A model generated the notes under the pieces. That model was not told the DNA's origin. It saw only the letters and a list, made by a program, of their open reading frames with translations, and did no database searches. DNA of 41,361 nt from Patescibacteria group bacterium (GTDB lineage Bacteria > Patescibacteriota > Patescibacteriia > JAACEG01): positions 1 through 41,361 of the forward strand of contig JAYEJQ010000056.1 of NCBI GenBank assembly GCA_034660735.1, in the 5' to 3' direction. Made by a program: the position numbers and the translations under genes. Below, in pieces: positions 1-39,097 of this stretch. Within the stretch, counting starts at the first letter, position 1. Every line of letters starts with the position of its first letter.

Positions 1-146
1 AAAAGAAAAAAGAAAAAGAGAAGAAAAGGAAAAGTTAAAAAAACTTTTTGAAGGTCTTTTTTAAAAAGTTTTGAATTTATAAATGTTTCTGAAAATTTAT
101 TTAGTACTGGGGTAGGCGTAGTGAAAGCGAGGGTTAATAGCCCGTG

Positions 147-343
147 CCAATGCTTTGCATTGGAAATTTCAAGGACACAAGAAACAAGGACACAAATAAA
201 TTAAAAATTTCAATATCCAAATTTTAAATTGTTTGGAATTTGAGATTTGATTATTGAAATTTATTTGTAATTTGCCACCCTAATTGGTGGTCACCCGCAA
301 GGGTGATATCTTGAAATTTGGAATTTCTGCTGTAAAGCAGTGG
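147..343 (+). repeat. 23S intervening sequence (helix extension) at about E. coli position 650; contains repeat module copy 1 (164-269)
   Basis: Non-rRNA sequence between conserved gagggttaatagcccgtgcc and ggcgtgtcttataaacaagacccgaaacc. It is closed by the pairing gtgcc/ggcgtg. The 5' arm is A/C-rich and the 3' arm G/T-rich. Confidence 0.75.
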
Positions 344-741
344 CGTGTCTTATAAACAAGACCCGAAACCGGGTGATCTAACCATGGCCAGGATGAAGTC
401 CAGCGAAAGCTGTATGGAGGTCCGAACCCACTAGTCGTGCAACACTAGGGGATGAGCTGTGGCTAGCGGTGAAATTCCAATCGAACTCGGTAATAGCTGG
501 TTCTCCTCGAAATAGCTGTAGGGCTAGCCTCGGATAAATTGAAGTATGGGGGTAGAGCACTGAATGGGGCTCGGGGGAGCAATCCTACCGTCTCCAACCA
601 AACTCCGAATACCATATTTTTTACTCCGGGAGTTAGACTGTGGGGGCTAAGCTTCACAGTCAAAAGGGAAACAGCCCAGATCGCCATCTAAGGTCCCTAA
701 ATTTATACTAAGTGTGAAAAGTGGTGAGACAACTCAAACAA

Positions 742-772
<31 letters not shown>

Positions 773-870
773 TAAAGAAAGCGTAACAGCTCACTGGTCA
801 AGTCGTCTTGCGCTAAAAATGTATCGGGGCTAAGTATAATACCGAAGATGCGAGTTGATGCGAAGCATCA

Positions 871-1004
871 GAAATTTCAAAGACACAAGAAACAAGGACG
901 CAAATAAATTAAAAATTTCAATATCCAAATTTTAAATTGTTTGGAATTTGAGATTTGATTATTGAAATTTGTTTGTATCTTGTTGCTTGGAATTTGGAAT
1001 TTCT
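871..1004 (+). repeat. 23S intervening sequence in helix 45 (E. coli ~1170); contains repeat module copy 2 (872-977)
   Basis: Lies between accgaagatgcgag... and ...gcggtagaggagcattctg, the E. coli CACCGAAGCUGCGG...GGGUAGGGGAGCGUUCUG context. 872-977 matches 164-269 with 3 mismatches in 106 nt by eye. Confidence 0.8.
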
Positions 1005-1310
1005 GATGTTTTGCATCAGCGGTAGAGGAGCATTCTGTTTGCGTTGAAGCCATATCGCGAGGTATGGTGGAGCGGATAGAAGAGAGAATGTTGGCATGAG
1101 TAACATAAAGACAGGTGAGAACCCTGTCCACCGTAAGCCTAAGGTTTCCTGGGCAACGTAAATCGACCCAGGGTTAGTCGGTCCTAAGGCGAGTCTAGTG
1201 TAGTGCTAGGGTAGTCGATGGATAAGCTGGTTAATATTCCAGCACCACTTTTAAATGCTAAAAAGATGCGTGGTTTAAAAGATTAAGCATACTATGGTTT
1301 GTGTGTTTTT

Positions 1311-1447
1311 CGTGTCTCACTTTCGTTTGATACGACGTAGAATAACGTAGACTAAACGTAGATTAATGCAGAATAATAATTTATTTCTGCGTAGTTCGGC
1401 GTAAAGTCAACGTAGTTCAGCGCCGTGGCAAGCGGTAGCGAGACGCG
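1311..1447 (+). repeat. Hairpin element H, copy 1 (137 nt), inserted in the 23S domain III variable region
   Basis: cgtgtctc...gagacgcg long imperfect palindrome, near-identical to 2119-2253 and 2511-2647. Confidence 0.85.
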
Positions 1448-1643
1448 GAGAAAAGGCTGCGCTACGGCAAAGCTTATTTAATTAAATAAATTACCTAGAA
1501 AAGTTTTTTTGGCTTCAGTTTAATAGTGTCCGTACTAAAACCGACACAGGTAGGCGAGGCGAGTAGCCTCAGGTGAACGAGAGAACCTTTGTTCAGGAAC
1601 TAGGCAAAACAACGGCCGTAATTTCGAGATAAGGCCTGTCCAG

Positions 1644-1990
1644 CCAATGCTTTGCATTGGAAATTCCAAATCCAAAATCTTAAATCACAAATAAATTCAA
1701 AATTAAAAAATATTGTTATTCCGAACTTAATTCGGAATTTGCCCGATTGCCTTGCATTAATTGAGGCGGGTCTGTCATTACTATTTACTATATTATGATT
1801 AAGATAGATAAAACTTTAAATATTATAGTTTATCTTATTGAGTAGTATTTAGTCGGCGGTAAGCGCAGATCCTGAAACAAGTTCAGGATGACAGGTTTTT
1901 TAAAAAGTTTATAATTAAATATTTGAATTTTAATTATTGTAATTTATTTGGAATTTAGAATTTGTAATTTGGTGCTTCCGATGCAGAGCA
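1644..1990 (+). repeat. Large (~350 nt) 23S intervening sequence at about E. coli 1710-1750, with a nested family-A element
   Basis: Lies between conserved ggccgtaatttcgagataaggc and gactgtttagcaaaaaca. An A/C-rich arm (1663-1712) faces a G/T-rich arm (1900-1975). The 23-nt junction gccaatgctttgcattggaaatt (1643-1665) is identical to 146-168. Confidence 0.75.
1713..1893 (+). mobile_element. Family-A MITE-like palindromic element, copy A1, nested inside the 23S insertion
   Basis: Terminal hairpins ttgttattccgaacttaattcggaat and atcctgaaacaagttcaggatgaca. The internal block tgcccgattgccttgcatta...ggcgg..tctgtca.tac is shared with 38540-38585. The block actatattatgattaagat is shared with 4550-4558 and, inverted, with 5078-5096. 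Confidence 0.7.
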
Positions 1991-2118
1991 GCGGTTTGGA
2001 TCGCAGCTAAAGACCCTGAGTGACTGTTTAGCAAAAACATAGCTCCCTGCTAACTCGCAAGAGGATGTATAGGGGGTGATGCCTGGCCAGTGTCCGAACG
2101 TTAAGGAAGGGGGTTATT

Positions 2119-2253
2119 CGTGCCTCACTATCGTTTGACACGACGCAGAATAAGGCAGACTAAACGCAGACTAATGCAGAATAAATTTATTTTTGCGTAG
2201 TTCGGCGTAAAGTCAGCGTAGTTCAGCGCCGTGGCAAGCGGCAGCGAGGCGCG
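2119..2253 (+). repeat. Hairpin element H, copy 2 (135 nt), inserted in the helix 68 region (E. coli ~1860-1880)
   Basis: cgtgcctc...gaggcgcg. Flanked by conserved gtccgaacgttaaggaaggggg and gaagcgcggatgaacgccggcgataactataa. Confidence 0.85.
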
Positions 2254-2510
2254 GAGAAGCTTCTGACTGAAGCGCGGATGAACGCCGGCGATAACTATAA
2301 TCGTCCTAAGGTAGCGAAATTCCTTGTCGGGTGAGTTCCGACCTGCACGAATGGCATAACAACTTGGGGACTGTCTTAACAAAGGACTCGGTGAAATTGC
2401 AATACGAGTAAAGATGCTCGTTACCCGCGGCTGGACGAAAAGACCCCGTGAAGCTTTACTACAGCTTGATATTGGATTAGGGTTATGCATGTTCAGAATA
2501 GGTGGGAGTT

Positions 2511-2647
2511 CGCGTCTCACTATCGTTTGACACGACGCAGAATAACGTAGACTAAACGCAGACTAATGCAGAATAATAATTTATTTCTGCGTAGTTCGGC
2601 GTAAAGTCAACGTAGTTCAGTGCCGTGGCGAGCGGCAGCGAGACGCG
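2511..2647 (+). repeat. Hairpin element H, copy 3 (137 nt), in the L1-stalk region (E. coli ~2110-2180)
   Basis: cgcgtctc...gagacgcg, between conserved aataggtgggag and gagataccaccc. Confidence 0.85.
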
Positions 2648-2698
2648 GACACTAGTGAGATACCACCCTTGTATATTTTTAATCCTAACCCTGCGCCG

Positions 2699-2838
2699 TT
2701 ATTGGCTACTAAATAAAATTTTTAATTTTTAATTTTGTAATTTTATAAATAATTTTTAATGCTTAAATTTTTTAAAAATAATTTTATTTAAATGTTTAAA
2801 AATTAAAAATTATAAAATTGGAAATTTAGTATTCAATA
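2699..2838 (+). repeat. Extremely AT-rich 23S intervening sequence in the helix 79 region (E. coli ~2200-2225)
   Basis: Lies between cctaaccctgcgccg and ccggtgcgggaacagtatctggtggg. Closing stem ttattggctactaaat / atttagtattcaata. Confidence 0.7.
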
Positions 2839-3127
2839 CCGGTGCGGGAACAGTATCTGGTGGGTAGTTTGACTGGGGCAGTGACCTCCTAAAGAGTAAT
2901 GGAGGTGTTTACAAAGGTTGGCTATTCCGGGATGGAAATCCGGAAGATAGTGCAAACGCATAAGCCAGCTTTACTGCAAGATTTACAAATCGAGCAGTTG
3001 CGAAAGCAGAAGTTAGTGATCCGACCGTTCAATATAGGATGGCGGAAGCTCAACGGATAAAAGCTACTCCGGGGATAACAGGCTAGTCTGGTCCAAGAGT
3101 TCACATCGACGACCAGGTTCGGCACCT

Positions 3128-3973
3128 CAACATATCGGGGCGCCATCTCGAGTAATCGAGTAAATAAATTTGGCTTATAACGGTGGACTCCATAATTAAT
3201 TTAGCCTATAATATATATTAAATATTTAAATATATAAAATTATGGACAATACCGTGGGAAGTCTAACTCAATATCAATTATCAATCATCATTGGTTCAAT
3301 TTTAGGCGATGGATATATTAGGCAAATAAAAGGAAGAAAAGACGCTTTTTTAGAAATCAATCATTCTATAAAAGCTAAAAAATATGTAGACTGGAAATTT
3401 GACGCCTTAAAAAATATATGCAAATCACCGCCAAAACAAAGAATTATTGATGAAAGAAGAACGGCTTATCGTTTTTATACTAAACAACATAGTGAATTAA
3501 GCGCTTTGCTTAAGTTGTTTTATAAAAACAAAAGAAAGATAATACCGTCTTCATTAGTATTAAATCCGCTAATTTTAGCAGTTTGGTTTATGGACGATGG
3601 AAGCAAATCAAGAAAATATGATGTTTATCTTAATACTCAGCAATTTTCATTAAATGACCAAAAAGCACTTCTTAAAAGATTGCGTGATTTAGGACTCAGA
3701 GCAAGGTTAAACAAAGATAAAAAATATTACCGCATACGATTTTTAAAAGAGAGTATTTCTAAATTAAATGAAATTATTTCGCCTTATGTAATAGAGTCTA
3801 TGAAATACAAATTGAGTTATGACCCCGTAGAGACTTGATTTTAAAATCAGAGTTCCGCAAATGCGCGGAGCTAATACGCCAACTCCGTTTATTGATAAAA
3901 ATGGAAGAAGATATAGTCCATGCCATTAGTAATAATGGAAAGTAATTCCGAATTTACGGGATGAAATAGACAG
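3128..3973 (+). mobile_element. Group I intron in 23S rRNA, inserted after the residue equivalent to E. coli U2500 (peptidyl-transferase centre)
   Basis: Joining ...ggttcggcacct (ends 3127) to cgatgtcggctcgtcc (starts 3974) restores the conserved GGCACCUCGAUGUCGGCUC. The 5' exon ends in U and the intron ends in G (gacag). A candidate guide sequence ggggcgcc (3137-3144) can pair with ggcacct, giving a U-G wobble at the splice site. The core-like string gaagatatagtcc is at 3907-3919. An ORF sits in the intron. Confidence 0.8.
3242..3838 (+). CDS. LAGLIDADG homing endonuclease (double-motif, 198 aa), intron-encoded
   Basis: Two LAGLIDADG-type motifs: IIGSILGDGYI near the N-terminus and LAVWFMDDGS at about residue 112. 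Located inside the 23S intron. Confidence 0.85.
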   Translation: MDNTVGSLTQYQLSIIIGSILGDGYIRQIKGRKDAFLEINHSIKAKKYVDWKFDALKNICKSPPKQRIIDERRTAYRFYTKQHSELSALLKLFYKNKRKIIPSSLVLNPLILAVWFMDDGSKSRKYDVYLNTQQFSLNDQKALLKRLRDLGLRARLNKDKKYYRIRFLKESISKLNEIISPYVIESMKYKLSYDPVET

Positions 3974-4041
3974 CGATGTCGGCTCGTCCTATCCTGGGGC
4001 TGAAGAAGGTCCCAAGGGTTTGGCTGTTCGCCAATTAAAAG

Positions 4042-4085
<44 letters not shown>

Positions 4086-4208
4086 CTATCCGCCGTGGGC
4101 GTTGAAATTTGAGAAGGCGCATTCCTAGTACGAGAGGACCGGAATGCATAAACCTCTAGTGCACCAATTGTTCTACCAAGGGCATCGTTGGGTAGCTATG
4201 TTTAGTTT

Positions 4209-4241
<33 letters not shown>

Positions 4242-4498
4242 GTCTTTAAGATTAGATTTCTCAGATCTCCCAGAGACTATGGGATTGATAGGCCGTATGT
4301 GTAAGTTTGGCAACAAATTTAGCAGAGCGGTACTAATAGATCGTTTTTTTCTCCGCGCTTTTCTGTTTGAAAAGTTGTGGAACTATAAGAATGTCCAGTT
4401 TTGGCGCTCGTTAACGCGTTTATAATTTCGGATTTCAGATGTCGGATTTCAGATTTGGAATTTTGAAAATTATTTTTTATATTGATATATAAAAAACA

Positions 4499-4575
4499 TT
4501 GTCATTCTGAATTTATTTCAGAATCTGTGTTTGTAATTCACTATATTATGATTAAGATTAGTAAAATTTTAAATT
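4499..4575 (+). mobile_element. Family-A element, copy A2 (left half only) in the 23S-5S spacer
   Basis: ttgtcattctgaatttatttcagaatctgtg...cactatattatgattaagatt. No matching right terminus. Confidence 0.55.
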
Positions 4576-4687
4576 TATAATTTTAAATTTTAAATCAATT
4601 TTAAATTTTTAAATGACTAAAAATAATTTTTAAAAGATAATTTAAAATTTGTTTATTTTATTTTAATTTCATTTCAAATTAAAAATT
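4567..4687 (+). repeat. AT-rich direct repeat C, copy 1 (upstream of 5S rRNA)
   Basis: ttttaaatttataattttaaattttaaatcaa...ataatttaaaattt.tt.att...tttcatttcaaatt..aaaaatt recurs at 5289-5390. Confidence 0.6.
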
Positions 4688-4729
4688 CCAAATTCAAAAT
4701 CTCAAATTACAAATTTAATTGTTTTTAAT

Positions 4730-4840
4730 GTCTTCGTGATTTTAGCGGAAGGGGTACACCTGATCCCATCCCGAACTCAGAAGTTAAGCCTTTTAGCACC
4801 GATGATACTGCTTTGCGGGAAAGTAGGCCATTGCGGAGAC
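4730..4840 (+). rRNA. rrf: 5S rRNA
   Basis: Contains cctgatcccatcccgaactcagaagttaagcc. Helix I pairs gtcttcgtga with ttgcggagac. Confidence 0.9.
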
Positions 4841-4983: not shown

Positions 4984-5131
4984 TTGTCATCCTGAATTTA
5001 TTTCAGGATTTATGTCTGTTATTAGTTGAATATTACTCAGCAAGACAAACTATAATATTTAAAGTTTTAATAATCTTAATCATAATATAGCGAGTAGTAA
5101 TAATAGATCCTGAAATAAATTTAGGATGACA
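4984..5131 (-). mobile_element. Family-A element, copy A3 (complete; interior inverted relative to A1)
   Basis: Termini ttgtcatcctgaatttatttcaggat and atcctgaaataaatttaggatgaca. Flanked by an A/C-rich arm (4928-4972) and a G/T-rich arm (5136-5190). Confidence 0.7.
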
Positions 5132-9128: not shown

Positions 9129-9301
9129 AGATTTACTGCATAATAAGTTGTGTGGCGAGATTTTTAGATTTTTAGGCAATTTTTAAAAATTTTATAAGTA
9201 TATTTCGTAGTCCTACAGAGGGCGTTGAAAAATTTGACCAAAATATATCTGTCCGCCTTTAGAGGAGAAATCGCAACAGTAAATTATTATGTAATAGTTC
9301 T
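9129..9301 (-). mobile_element. Family-B MITE-like element, full-length copy (inverted relative to 37249-37430)
   Basis: Degenerate TIRs agatttactgcataataa / ttattatgtaatagttct. The interior is collinear with the reverse complement of 37249-37430 (e.g. aaatttgaccaaaatat..ctgtcc.cctttagagg). Carries the hairpin variant ttcgtagtcctacagag (9204-9220). Confidence 0.65.
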
Positions 9302-9368
9302 AACATACTTATAATTTCAGATCTGCATTTTATGTAATATTTTGCATTTTTGAATTTTTTTTAAATTT

Positions 9369-20297: not shown

Positions 20298-20484
20298 TTT
20301 TGAATTACAAAACGCAAAAAATATGTCACCCTGAATTTATTTCAGGGTCTGTCATTACTATTCGCTGAATTATAATTGGATGAATAAAATCTAAATTTTT
20401 ATTTTATACTGCTTAAATATAATATAGTAAATAGTAGATACGAATCCTGACCCCGCTGCTCGCGAGCGGCGGGGCAGGATGACA
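20298..20484. mobile_element. Family-A element, copy A5, in the spacer between ADH synthase and DHQ synthase II
   Basis: tgtcaccctgaatttatttcagggtctgtcattac...caggatgaca. The right-end hairpin is replaced by the GC-rich cctgaccccgctgctcgcgagcggcggggcagg. The string aaatattaagatat is present on both sides (20274-20287 and 20527-20540). Confidence 0.65.
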
Positions 20485-21293: not shown

Positions 21294-21858
21294 AAAATTT
21301 ATAATTATATATTAAATTTTGACATATTTTATTTCCTTATTTTTTAACACTCCTTGACAATGGAGAGTCGGGGAGGGTTTTTTAAAAAATTTAACCCCTT
21401 AAATTATCTTTGTCAGGTGGGATTTAATATGAAATATGCTAAAGTTTAGTTATATAAATTAGAAAAACCTCTTAGTGAGGCTTTTGTTTTTTTTAGTTAT
21501 TTTATAAATTAACAATCGCCTCAAATAATAAAATTAAAAAAATAATAAGATACGAAAAAAGAGAAAAATAAATTTTCCCAAATATTAAATACAACTATTT
21601 TTTCTGCTTTAATTAAATTCATTATATATTTTAAATTTTTTGCGACTTTATAATATATTTTACTTCTTATTATATTTTTGTCAAATAATTGATTTTTGTA
21701 AAAGATAGTGCTAATATGTATATAAATTAAAATTTTATATAATAGATTTGCCGCATAATTAATTTCTATCGTGATTTTTTTTCCAAAAAACGGATAAGCA
21801 ATTTTGACCAAATTTTTCAAAAATTTTAACGCCTTCCGAAGCACTTTGGCGGACTTAT

Positions 21859-21930
21859 AAAATTGTTTGAAAAATTTGTCTCACCCCGTAGTCCTACGGG
21901 GCGTCACGAAACTAATTACGCGGCAAGTCT
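21859..21930 (+). mobile_element. Family-B element, right-half copy, ending 12 nt before the ilvB ATG
   Basis: aaaaatttgtctca-ccccgtagtcctacgggg-cgtcacgaaactaattacgcggcaagtct, collinear with 27227-27300 and 37355-37430. Confidence 0.6.
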
Positions 21931-21942
21931 AATTCTTATTTT

Positions 21943-27174: not shown

Positions 27175-27226
27175 AAGTTATTAGATTTGTTATGTAATAA
27201 ATTTCTACTGTAATTTTAATCTTTTT

Positions 27227-27300
27227 GCCAAATTTTTGAAAAAATTTGCCTAACCCCGTAGTCCTACGGGGCGTTACAAAATTTATTACGCGACAAGTCT
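27227..27300 (+). mobile_element. Family-B element, right-half copy, ending 1 nt from the ispG stop codon
   Basis: gccaaatttttgaaaaaatttgcctaa-ccccgtagtcctacgggg-cgttacaaaatttattacgcgacaagtct. Confidence 0.6.
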
Positions 27301-27301
27301 A

Positions 27302-36536: not shown

Positions 36537-37250
36537 ATGACAAAAATACCAGACACTTTAAAGATGTTAAAAGCAGGGTTGCATTTCGGGCATCGCTCCT
36601 CAAAATGGCATCCTAAAATGAAACCTTATATCTTTACAACTCGTAATGATATACACATCATTGATTTAGAAAAAACAAGAAAGGCGCTAAAAAATGCCTG
36701 TGAATTTATTGAAGATTTATCAGCAAAAGACGGTGTTATCCTATTTTTAGGAAGCAAGCCACAGATTAAAGAGTTAGTAAGAAAAAAAGCGATAGAAGCG
36801 AATTCTCCATCTGTTGTAGATCGCTGGCTTGGCGGAACCATTACTAATTTCTTTATTATTTCTCAAGTTATAAATAAATATAACAATCTAAAAAAAGAGA
36901 AGGAGGATGGCGGATGGGACGAAAAATATACTAAAAAAGAACAGGTTGTATTAAGAAAAGAAGTAGAAAGGCTTGAAAAAAAAGTCGGGGGAATAAAAAA
37001 TTTAAAAAAAATCCCTGACGCTATTTTTATAATTGACTGCAAGAACGAAAAAACAGCTTTAAACGAAGCAAAATTAAAAAAAGTCCCTGTTATCGCTTTA
37101 TGTGATACAAACATCAATCCAGATGGCATTGATTATGTAATTCCAGGAAATGACGATTCCATTAAAGGCATAGAGATGATTTTGGGTTTAGTGGTTGAAG
37201 CTATTAAAAATGGGCGGAATAAACCTATTAATCAAAAAAATAATAAATAG
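36537..37250 (+). CDS. rpsB: 30S ribosomal protein S2
   Basis: LKAGLHFGH, IHIIDL motifs. Strong SD aaaggag. Confidence 0.92.
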   Translation: MTKIPDTLKMLKAGLHFGHRSSKWHPKMKPYIFTTRNDIHIIDLEKTRKALKNACEFIEDLSAKDGVILFLGSKPQIKELVRKKAIEANSPSVVDRWLGGTITNFFIISQVINKYNNLKKEKEDGGWDEKYTKKEQVVLRKEVERLEKKVGGIKNLKKIPDAIFIIDCKNEKTALNEAKLKKVPVIALCDTNINPDGIDYVIPGNDDSIKGIEMILGLVVEAIKNGRNKPINQKNNK

Positions 37251-37430
37251 ACTTGTCGCATAATAACTTTTTACTGCGATTTTCCCTCCAAAGGAGGACA
37301 GGCATATTTTGGTCAAATTTTTTATCCACCCTATCGCGAGAAGGGGGATGAAATATTTGCCTCAAAATCTGAAAATCTCGCGGAATTTATCCCGTATTCG
37401 CTACGGGGAAATTTATTATGCGACAGGTCT
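37249..37430 (+). mobile_element. Family-B MITE-like element, full-length reference copy (182 bp, 18-bp TIRs)
   Basis: agacttgtcgcataataa ... ttattatgcgacaggtct (17/18 inverted match). Internal hairpins ccct-atcgcgaga-aggg and cccgta-ttcgc-tacggg. The first two bases are the AG of the rpsB TAG stop codon. Confidence 0.75.
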
Positions 37431-37454
37431 AATAATTTTATTTCAAATAAATTT

Positions 37455-38514: not shown

Positions 38515-38610
38515 TTGTCATCCTGAATTTAGTTCAGGACCTGCCCGATTGCCTTGCATTAAGGCGGACTGGTCTGTCACTACTTATCGCTAAATTATAA
38601 TCAAATTATT
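38515..38610 (+). mobile_element. Family-A element, copy A6 (left half)
   Basis: ttgtcatcctgaatttagttcaggacctgcccgattgccttgcattaaggcggactggtctgtcactac. Shares its interior with A1 (1741-1790). Confidence 0.6.
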
Positions 38611-38646
38611 AAATATTGATTTTATAATTTTGTAAATTTTAAAAAT

Positions 38647-38871
38647 ATGAAAAGTTCATTTTTCACAATATATATTGAACAAGACGAAGATGGAACATTT
38701 ATCGGATCTATCCCGTCTATCCCAAGTTGCTACGCGCAAGGAGAGACACAAGAAGAAATGCTTAAAAATTTACGGCAAGTCTTTAGACTTTGCGTTAGAA
38801 ATACAAATTTTTTAGAATCACCCAAGACTAAATTTATTGGAATACAAAATTTAAAATTATCGTATGCCTAA
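38647..38871 (+). CDS. hicB: HicB-family antitoxin (short, N-terminal domain only)
   Basis: 74 aa. FTIYIEQDEDGTFIGSIPSIPSCYAQGETQEEMLKNLRQ is the typical HicB/UPF0150 fold pattern. 8-nt overlap with hicA. Confidence 0.7.
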   Translation: MKSSFFTIYIEQDEDGTFIGSIPSIPSCYAQGETQEEMLKNLRQVFRLCVRNTNFLESPKTKFIGIQNLKLSYA

Positions 38872-39097
38872 ACTTATTCCGATTAAATTTAAAAGGTTTG
38901 TTAAAATTCTTAATAAACTTGGGTTTTCAAAACGCGACGCGGAAGGATCACATATATTTTTTAAACATTTAGACGGACGGACAACAGTCGTTCCAAATTG
39001 TAAAAAAGACATAAGCAAAGGGCTTCTTAAAAAAATATTAAATGACATTAAATTATCTGTTGAAGAATATGAAAAATTAAGAAGAAAAAATATATAA
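38864..39097 (+). CDS. hicA: HicA-family mRNA interferase toxin
   Basis: 77 aa. FVKILNKLGF...GSHIFFKH..GRTTVVPN..KDISKGLLKKILNDI pattern. Confidence 0.75.
   Translation: MPKLIPIKFKRFVKILNKLGFSKRDAEGSHIFFKHLDGRTTVVPNCKKDISKGLLKKILNDIKLSVEEYEKLRRKNI

Follow-up and report, generated by a model that had tools for sequence, protein, structure and literature searches.

A REP-type hairpin dimer apparently nested in an IVS-like hairpin at helix H63 of a Patescibacteria 23S rRNA gene

The two layers of the H63 insertion

The 23S rRNA gene of a Patescibacteria group bacterium carries a 346-nt insertion in helix H63, which we interpret, with moderate confidence, as a hairpin-in-hairpin extension in two layers: a REP dimer nested in an IVS-like hairpin, having entered at the DNA level and likely to be excised from the transcript by RNase III. 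The first layer (1648-1712 with 1894-1993) is a long, A-U/G-U-rich stem of an IVS-like family that was probably the first to occupy H63. The second (1713-1893) is a REP dimer that most likely entered the tip of the hairpin already present by a DNA-level event. The tip of H63 is exposed at the large-subunit surface, which may be why a dimer is tolerated there.

The DNA analysed here (the window) is a 41,361-bp contig of this metagenome-assembled genome (MAG), which is Parcubacteria-like, with a GC content of 20-43%. The DnaK and LeuB proteins encoded here are identical to MEA2065272.1 and MEA2065255.1, and identical genes are present in the Logan assembly of SRR26901925. The window starts inside the 23S gene (Rfam LSU match 188-4356, 1566 bits), within another 23S insertion, and 3' of the 23S come the 5S gene (4732-4839), tRNA genes, of which there are four, and housekeeping genes of the usual kinds. 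The 23S gene has many insertions, the one in H63 being one of several, and those of the window resolve into at least three hairpin families plus the REP dimer. Its features are as follows; helix names are approximate, except H45 and H63.

145-345, + strand: second copy of the A/C-G/T hairpin family, at a domain II site, with a nested module (274-310) in its 3' arm
853-1018, + strand: third copy of the A/C-G/T hairpin family, replacing H45
1309-1449, 2118-2258 and 2509-2649: three copies of a 141-nt hairpin
1637-1647, + strand: native, reduced H63 stem, 5' strand (local alignment to Rfam LSU, model positions about 1746-1757)
1644-1660: basal clamp hairpin CCAATGCtttGCATTGG, starting just 5' of the A/C-rich arm, inside the native-stem part
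1648-1712, + strand: A/C-rich 5' arm of the IVS-like hairpin, pairing with 1894-1993 in the minimum-energy fold
1714-1738, + strand: left REP hairpin, with TGTT tag, 8-bp stem ATTCCGAA, 5-nt loop CTTAA and TTCGGAAT
1739-1770, + strand: 32-nt extra block ttgcccgattgccttgcattaattgaggcggg, which forms a small hairpin module and is shared only by the H63 and 38516 copies
1771-1868, + strand: conserved, imperfectly palindromic REP-dimer spacer, beginning tctgtcattactatttactatattatgattaagat
1869-1893, - strand: right REP hairpin, reading TGTC ATCCTGAA cttgt TTCAGGAT ctg on the minus strand (0 mismatches)
1894-1993, + strand: G/T-rich 3' arm of the IVS-like hairpin (minimum-energy fold, alignment)
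1994-2003, + strand: native H63 stem, 3' strand (local alignment to Rfam LSU)
about 2700-2840: AT-rich insert
about 3129-3973: group I-type intron with a LAGLIDADG_2 ORF

In the local alignment to the Rfam LSU model, the insertion comprises 346 nt (about 1648-1993 of the window) where the model has 12 positions. It falls in the loop of the hairpin directly after H62, which we take to be H63 from its conserved flanks, judged against E. coli 23S. Folded as RNA, positions 1630-2005 form a single long hairpin (-115.5 kcal/mol, z = -7.9; none of 100 shuffles was as stable) with two layers, an outer stem in which 1648-1712 pairs with 1894-1993 and, at its tip, the inner REP dimer (1713-1893, 181 nt). 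As in an IVS, the insertion is an extended stem-loop at the tip of a variable helix and is sporadic among relatives. Searches of 1645-1995 returned no Rfam family at E values up to 1, save a chance snoRNA fragment, and the group I and group II intron models were unmatched.

By alignment and predicted structure, the A/C-rich and G/T-rich arms form a hairpin family of their own, similar to rRNA IVSs and distinct from the REP dimer. With the H63 dimer removed, six hairpins could be aligned, namely the H63, H45 and domain II members of the window and three in the 23S gene of a related metagenomic contig, L133, where one lies at about 356-520 and the others occupy H45 and H63. Their consensus structure has 52 pairs, 15 of which have changes on both sides. 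A small GC-rich hairpin (CCAATGC/GCATTGG, GATGC/GCATC or CCGTGC/GCACGG) clamps each base in all members, and after the clamp come GGAAATTYCAA, the A/C-rich arm, the tip and the G/T-rich arm, in that order. The 5' arm at 1648-1712 has homologues in the 5' arms of the other two copies (145-273 and 853-930) and in L133, and the domain II copy matches 858-982 at 92% identity over 125 nt. Hairpin copies within a genome are 73-86% identical, compared with 52% for copies at the same site in different genomes, which indicates spread or homogenisation within the genome. The H63 arms of L133 are only about 52% identical to those of the window over the whole alignment, and local BLAST matches of 78-86% fall mostly on the H45 copy of L133. 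The tip of the L133 H63 member is a small GC hairpin (ctgcc-tacc-ggcag) and REP is absent. The family hairpin thus occupies H63 in L133 without REP, which makes it probable that the dimer was inserted secondarily, nested in the hairpin, and that the order of the two events was hairpin, then dimer.

Terminal hairpins and copies of the dimer

The hairpins at the two ends of the dimer can be assigned, from their sequence features, to the CGTC-tagged REP superfamily, as TGTC-tagged members. CGTC REPs have an unpaired 4-nt tag (CGTC, with the variants TGTC and CCTC), an 8-bp stem beginning A-T, a loop of 4-5 nt and a short unpaired tail with the consensus CCA (Di Nocera, De Gregorio and Rocco 2013, BMC Genomics 14:522, PMC3733652). 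They occur predominantly as head-to-head dimers with the tags outside and conserved, structured spacers of 20-100 bp, heterodimers are common, insertions inside genes are known, and families number from tens to thousands of units per genome (PMC3733652). The superfamily includes Neisseria dRS3 and Rickettsia RPE-4 and RPE-6 and was reported from five phyla, CPR/Patescibacteria not being among these; a dedicated or linked transposase is not known (PMC3733652).

Eight hairpin units were found in the 41-kb window. Allowing up to three mismatches, TGTCATCCTGAAnnnnnTTCAGGAT has six matches (1869-1893 on the minus strand, 4500-4524 plus, 4985-5009 plus, 5107-5131 minus, 20324-20348 plus and 38516-38540 plus), against 0.00 expected and none in shuffled controls, and a looser scan added two variant hairpins (1714-1738 and 20444-20484). 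The tag is TGTC in seven of the eight and TGTT in one. All stems have 8 bp with A as first base (ATCCTGAA, ATTCTGAA and ATTCCGAA, plus one, ACCCTGAA, with C-G at the second position), as in the superfamily. The loop has 5 nt in seven units, and that of the eighth holds a nested 24-nt hairpin. Tails in the window are CTG, CTA, TTA and TTG; those of 139 matches elsewhere include CTC (44), CTA (26) and the superfamily consensus CCA (15). Two double changes, both compensatory, separate the left hairpin of the H63 element (ATTCCGAA/TTCGGAAT) from its right hairpin (ATCCTGAA/TTCAGGAT), which makes this element a heterodimer.

The same hairpin type is widespread. We scanned one genome per bacterial and archaeal species (596 Gb) with the pattern TGTCAYYCTGAA-N3-8-TTCAGRRT and obtained matches at 120 or more genome loci in a wide range of phyla, those listed including Bacteroidota, several proteobacterial classes, Melainabacteria, Treponema, Nitrospirota, Chloroflexota, Elusimicrobiota and many CPR lineages. 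By a rough estimate, a pattern this short could yield on the order of 100 chance matches in 596 Gb. Features that the pattern leaves free are nevertheless strongly non-random: the free stem positions YY/RR are complementary in 127 of the 139 listed matches (25% expected), the loop has 5 nt in 136 although six lengths were allowed, four loop sequences cover 103, and a C follows in 123. Variant hairpins with different yet complementary stems (ATGCTGAA, ATTCCGAA, ATTCCGGG and ATTCCCGC) adjoin listed matches. A full-text literature search for the hairpin sequence as a literal string found no instance. The copies in the window extend CGTC-type REPs to Patescibacteria.

The outward position of the TGTC tags, together with the conserved spacer (an imperfect palindrome) between the hairpins, makes the element as a whole a head-to-head REP dimer resembling a REPIN. 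Outside the 23S gene, the window has the following copies.

4500 to about 4560, + strand: truncated copy between the 23S and 5S genes, with the left REP and the first part of the dimer spacer; a full dimer occupies the same place in L195
4985-5131, - strand: full head-to-head dimer between the 5S and tRNA-Tyr genes, in the opposite orientation to the H63 copy; L195 has none in this spacer
20324-20484, + strand: full dimer between minus-strand DHQS and DeoC-like aldolase genes; the L195 site is empty
38516 to about 38605, + strand: truncated copy lying just upstream of a hicB/hicA pair, with the left REP, the extra block and the first part of the spacer

Full dimers thus number three in the window, with one more in each of two relatives, L195 and L104. 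Four of them were aligned as full copies (H63 1713-1893, 4985-5131 inverted, 20324-20484 and 728-875 of L104), together with the two truncated copies, both left halves. The L104 copy, at a non-rRNA site in another Parcubacteria MAG (JAGLTA01), matches window copies at E = 1e-40 and 4e-27, the latter being the H63 copy (75.7% identity over 169 nt). The dimer spacer measures about 97 nt, rising to 130 nt where the extra block is present, and was found only in the window, L104 and L195, that is in a Parcubacteria lineage, unlike the pan-bacterial hairpin. Spacer region 1771-1868 of the H63 copy is 76% identical to 4524-4585. Internal block tgcccgattgccttgcatta occurs only at 1740 and 38542, and block actatattatgattaagat at 1787, 4540 and 5073 (minus strand), both far above chance; the latter is degenerate in the 20324 and 38516 copies. 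E-value searches of the spacers matched no Rfam family.

The original prediction had placed one repeat family in both the 23S insertion and the intergenic spacers, and the terminal-pattern matches and the alignment confirm this. The architecture that it described for 1713-1893 is indeed shared with spacer copies, the limits of which are now 4985-5131, 20324-20484 and 38516 to about 38605. Its three spacer copies are real, but the list omitted the 23S-5S copy at 4500 to about 4560, and the copy at 38516 is only a truncated left half. The inversion that it noted is also real but concerns the 4985-5131 copy as a whole, not its interior: 1771-1868 is 84% complementary to 5029-5110 (82 nt), and the dimer is itself an imperfect palindrome. 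Chance similarity of AT-rich sequence, which it had named as the alternative, is refuted by the L104 match at E = 1e-40 and by shuffled controls, which gave 0 matches. Its MITE reading of the terminal hairpins did not survive: they are not the private ends of a lineage-specific element but TGTC REPs with at least 120 loci across many phyla. Nor did one element make the whole rRNA insertion, as it had implied, the arms being another family that occupies H63 in L133 without the dimer.

Smaller hairpins or blocks are repeatedly nested within these structures. They comprise a 24-nt GC hairpin (20451-20474) in the right-REP loop of the 20324-20484 copy, the 32-nt extra block immediately after the left REP in two copies, another TGTCA...TGACA element inside the centre of the L195 dimer, and the module at 274-310 in the 3' arm of the domain II hairpin. 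Such recurrent nesting in hairpin tips suggests an insertion or template-switch process that prefers exposed hairpin loops.

The sense strand of every rRNA insertion gives the more stable RNA fold, rich in G-U pairs; the H63 dimer reaches -51.1 kcal/mol on the rRNA-sense strand, where it has 12 such pairs, and -36.7 kcal/mol with one on the opposite strand. This asymmetry is suggestive for the rRNA copies, but we do not take it as proof of selection at the RNA level, since the 20324 copy, located between minus-strand genes, has the same G-U bias, so that the asymmetry may be inherited or compositional rather than selected.

Filled and empty sites among relatives

Presence and absence at the orthologous 23S site, a comparison raised in the original prediction, could be read from 73 related 23S loci found in a metagenome scan with a 21-nt H62 sequence. 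The distance from the end of H62 to GACTGTTTA is 37-43 nt in 62 of the 73, corresponding to a minimal H63 with a tetraloop. Ten loci have other, mostly unrelated H63 inserts of roughly 80-290 nt, and only that of L133 resembles the insert of the window, which exceeds all others in length (H62 to GACTGTTTA, 385 nt). None of the 73 related loci has a hairpin with a TGTC or CGTC tag within its 23S, and among the 120 REP matches listed none overlapped a 23S or 5S gene. With inserts in several relatives and REP in none, the tip of H63 is a recurrent insertion site in the group at which REP is rare.

The closest comparison is provided by L195 (GCA_030641665.1, 16.3 kb), which is syntenic with the window, the 3' part of the 23S being 99.6% identical and the genes 80-85%. 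Its DHQS-DeoC spacer is about 30-45 nt long and lacks the dimer, compared with 278 nt including the 20324-20484 dimer in the window; the additional DNA at this site (about 250 nt) exceeds the 161-nt dimer. Its 5S-tRNA-Tyr spacer also lacks the dimer and has a small-ORF cassette in its place, and its 23S-5S spacer contains a complete dimer (600-845) of which the window retains only the left half. Lacking the dimer in two orthologous spacers and having a full one where the window is truncated, L195 demonstrates that the REP dimer is gained or lost at the DNA level between close relatives. L195 is also without the LAGLIDADG intron. As L195 begins at the position equivalent to 3009 of the window, downstream of H63, the order of hairpin first and dimer second rests on the more distant L133. 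Searches through the spurious ORFs in the 23S yielded no closer relative spanning H63: homologues of ORF 2128-2520 led only to the more distant 23S genes L198 and L199, and a close homologue of ORF 463-687 was not found.

Signs of a mobilising enzyme were sought in the same material. The genes of the window include no transposase and no Y1/RAYT gene, as the original prediction had stated for transposases, and no protein family recurs within 8 kb of the 120 listed REP loci. An expected association with small GIY-YIG nuclease genes was rejected: among ORFs within 150 nt of the 139 hairpins and ORFs of at least 90 aa in the 120 listed loci, only generic ABC ATPases and response regulators recur. 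Comparison with L195 revealed no evident target-site duplication at 4985-5131 or 20324-20484, where the AT-rich flanks have diverged, which blurs both comparisons and the exact insertion boundaries. A 14-nt direct repeat, aaatattaagatat, which brackets the 20324 copy at a distance of about 35-45 nt, was also considered as a target-site duplication and discarded, having no counterpart in the empty L195 site. Of the DNA-level acquisition by transposition proposed in the original prediction, the gain or loss at the DNA level therefore stands, on the evidence of L195, but transposition is unsupported, with no target-site duplication resolved at the two sites compared and no transposase in the window.

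Origin, RNA fate and known systems

Three other accounts of how the insertion arose have to be weighed. The whole of it might have been created by a single non-autonomous MITE, mobilised by a transposase of the IS200/IS605 or another type encoded elsewhere. The 25-nt ends of the dimer are indeed inverted copies of each other, like the terminal inverted repeats of a classical MITE, several copies exist, their presence varies between relatives, and hairpin ends suit single-strand HUH transposases, which recognise such structures. We nevertheless regard this account as very doubtful. The outer arms belong to another family and are present at H63 of L133 without the element, the search of the two sites compared with L195 and that of the window and of the 8 kb around the 120 listed REP loci came up empty as described, and the termini are of a pan-bacterial REP type without a known dedicated transposase. 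An IS200/IS605- or RAYT-type partner fits poorly in particular, because the tag is TGTC and not GTAG, no Y1 gene was seen and the ends are inverted repeats, which IS200/IS605 ends are not; this part of the original prediction finds no support. Ectopic recombination or gene conversion among hairpin modules of the rRNA operon, moving dimer and arms together into H63, is unlikely but has more to recommend it. Part of the A/C-rich arm (1656-1692) is 86% identical to an arm (4678-4714) that flanks a spacer copy, hairpins resemble each other more within the genome than at the same site across genomes, the module at 274-310 recurs in the L195 23S-5S spacer, and the right flank of the 4985 copy recurs upstream of the L195 5S gene. 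The arms, however, run A/C-G/T in H63 and G/T-A/C in the 23S-5S spacer, an arrangement for which simple conversion cannot account, and the copies at arm-free sites (20324 and L104) need a different route. An assembly artefact, in which a repeat-induced chimera placed a spacer copy into the 23S of this contig, is extremely improbable. The contig does come from a metagenome assembly, starts inside another 23S insertion and contains multi-copy repeats, and the spurious ORFs at 1652-1798 (overlapping the insertion) and 2128-2520 (nearby) have no record in an independent assembly. Against this, the sequences flanking the dimer pair with each other as arms of a single hairpin, and beyond them the 23S runs on correctly in both directions, so a chimera would need two precise joins; moreover, the H63 copy is distinct (extra block, variant left hairpin, 74-84% identity to the other copies) and is a copy of no other locus in the window.

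As to the RNA, the transcribed 346 nt would fold into one rod, for which two fates can be envisaged. Most likely RNase III would cut the rod out, as in classical bacterial IVSs, to leave a fragmented 23S; alternatively, the rod may be kept as an inert expansion. The window contains no RNase III gene. A further possibility is that the mature 23S retains the 346 nt; these would then correspond, in a bacterium, to eukaryotic ES27L and might have their own function. Eukaryotic ES27L also grows from H63. In favour of retention are the very stable, strand-specific fold with its G-U pairs, the compensatory changes in the left REP, and a 23S core that is intact (1566 bits) and almost identical in L195. 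Retention is still decidedly unlikely, as H63 is minimal in most relatives, in which a conserved function there is accordingly not needed, and long, near-perfect double-stranded RNA such as this rod is what RNase III naturally cuts. In addition, CPR rRNA insertions are removed from transcripts, according to the introduction of a paper citing Brown et al., and a survey of 2024 describes ORF-less, non-intron insertions in CPR 23S genes as common and suspects them to be RNase III-processed IVSs (Tsurumaki 2024, PMC11270868). Together with the analogy to bacterial IVSs, these reports make excision the likelier outcome. A broader and equally doubtful proposal would be that CPR rRNA insertions grow by repeated insertion of selfish hairpins into earlier tips, that an activity targeting hairpin loops spreads TGTC/CGTC REPs, and that the 346-nt rod stays in the mature ribosome; if true, the rod would be a bacterial expansion segment at the ES27L site, made of mobile palindromes.

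The favoured reading, a REP dimer nested in an IVS-like hairpin, is a new setting for known selfish hairpin DNA and involves no new class of element or enzyme. CGTC REPs, REP dimers, IVSs and palindromic repeats in structured RNA genes have all been described; new are the finding that Patescibacteria have REPs of this type, a REP dimer in an rRNA gene, and the recognition of CPR 23S insertions as repeated hairpin families able to carry REPs. Insertions occur in 82% of CPR 23S genes in the 2024 survey, which covers 348 such genes and leaves the ORF-less non-intron ones uncharacterised (PMC11270868). The present case shows that some of these belong to repeated hairpin families and that pan-bacterial REPs can lodge in them, which joins three separate topics, namely rRNA intervening sequences, REP/REPIN-type repeats and rRNA expansion. 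The survey's insertions come from the same organism group and are likewise non-intron, ORF-less, located on stem-loop tops and suspected to be IVSs; in the sections consulted they are not analysed as repeat families, which are resolved in the window. With filled and empty sites in close relatives and repeated landing in hairpin tips, these genomes offer a natural system for studying hairpin insertion.

Compared with CGTC REPs in general, the dimer has the same 4-nt tag, 8-bp stem starting A-T, 5-nt loop, short tail, head-to-head arrangement and heterodimeric make-up, also without a linked transposase in the window. It differs in its long, lineage-specific spacer (97-130 nt), its CTG or CTA tail instead of CCA, and its Patescibacteria host. 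Its location inside a 23S gene is without parallel among the 120 listed REP loci, the 73 related 23S genes and the literature searched. REPINs are similar in that two inverted REPs flank a spacer, form one long hairpin and are present or absent as a unit; REPINs and RAYT-associated REPs have a GTAG tag and a RAYT gene, whereas the dimer is tagged TGTC and the window showed neither a RAYT nor any other Y1 gene.

The H63 insertion likewise resembles the RNase III-excised 23S IVSs of Salmonella, Campylobacter, Leptospira and Coxiella, being a long stem in place of a variable-helix loop with a sporadic distribution, and the gene shares a classical IVS site with them through the arm-family member in H45. 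In the IVS literature consulted, the classical sites cited are H45 and H25; H63 is not among them, and the insertion further differs in that its family occurs three times in one gene and carries a nested REP dimer. Palindromic repeats are tolerated in structured RNA genes as well as in spacers in Rickettsia, where they sit in tmRNA and RNase P RNA genes (Ogata 2002, reviewed in PMC2229807). Two Rickettsia families, RPE-4 and RPE-6, are CGTC superfamily members like the present hairpins (PMC3733652). The dimer of the window differs from the Rickettsia elements in phylum and in the RNA gene concerned, and it is nested in a probably pre-existing rRNA insertion, not in native RNA.

Hairpin families within the 23S rRNA gene

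Hairpins with A/C-rich and G/T-rich arms, resembling an rRNA intervening sequence (IVS-like), occupy several helices per genome in both the window and L133, a related metagenomic 23S contig. Copies resemble others in their own genome more closely (86%) than they resemble the copy at the same site in the other genome (52–64%), which is suggestive of spread within each genome or of gene conversion. A third family of hairpins, 141 nt long and more GC-rich, is also spreading through the rRNA gene: the window has three copies of it, 84–95% identical, inserted at three distinct 23S sites. Judged by eye, one copy lies in the domain III region, one at a hairpin tip close to H66–67 and one in the reduced L1-stalk region; related sequences are present in the 23S genes of three other loci (L154, L124 and L188).

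IVS-like hairpins within 23S
Window 145-345: copy
Window 853-1018: copy
L133 356-520: copy
L133 1745-1906: copy
L133 2440-2645: copy

141-nt hairpins within 23S
Window 1309-1449: copy
Window 2118-2258: copy
Window 2509-2649: copy

By appearance, the L1-stalk rRNA (H76–78) of the window (2500–2660) has an inserted hairpin in its place, and a strong reduction is apparent in L133 (3030–3065). Parcubacteria lineages without ribosomal protein uL1 have been reported, and a reduced or replaced L1 stalk would fit with these. The contig itself opens within a further insertion into domain II of the 23S, rich in purines and in AT (1–106), recognisable 23S sequence beginning only at about 107; this is probably an assembly break in a repeat.

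A group I-type intron and spacer cassettes

The conserved GGCACCTC/GATGTCGGCTC region of 23S domain V is split in the window by a group I-type intron, which is missing in the close, syntenic relative L195 (GCA_030641665.1) despite 99.6% identity of the flanking 23S, so its gain or loss was recent. In L195, a small cassette missing from the window occurs twice in the rRNA-operon spacers, each copy comprising a common leader (aatcaataattgtgttgg...aggaggaaaaaaatg), an ORF of 69–70 aa and a common tail (ccaacacagttatggatt).

Intron and cassettes
Window 3129-3973: group I-type intron
Window 3242-3838: LAGLIDADG_2 homing endonuclease ORF of the intron
L195 855-1200: small cassette
L195 1628-1960: small cassette

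Intergenic elements and nested modules

Another MITE-like family, ~185 nt long and without relation to the first (head-to-head dimers of REP hairpins), occupies gene spacers: the one upstream of ilvB and those separating rpsB from tsf and ispG from ispH. Its ends are formed by 19-nt inverted TAGACYTGYCGCRTAATWA (five matches versus 0.01 expected), and its internal hairpin is CCCCGTAGtcCTACGGGG. Larger hairpins recurrently carry small hairpin modules nested in their loops or arms, and the tips look like favoured landing sites.

Second MITE-like family
Window 21743-21931: copy
Window 37248-37431: copy
Window 27210-27301: partial copy
Window 9228-9302: partial copy

Nested modules
Window 20451-20474: GC hairpin in REP loop
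Window 1739-1770: 32-nt block directly after left REP
Window 38541-38572: 32-nt block directly after left REP
Window 274-310: module in arm of IVS-like hairpin
L195 667-772: element in L195 REP dimer

Within 38516–39097, a truncated REP copy stops ~40 nt ahead of a hicB/hicA toxin-antitoxin pair, assigned by Pfam HicB-like and HicA; the right half of the REP dimer at 38516, which is missing, may have been displaced by this cassette.
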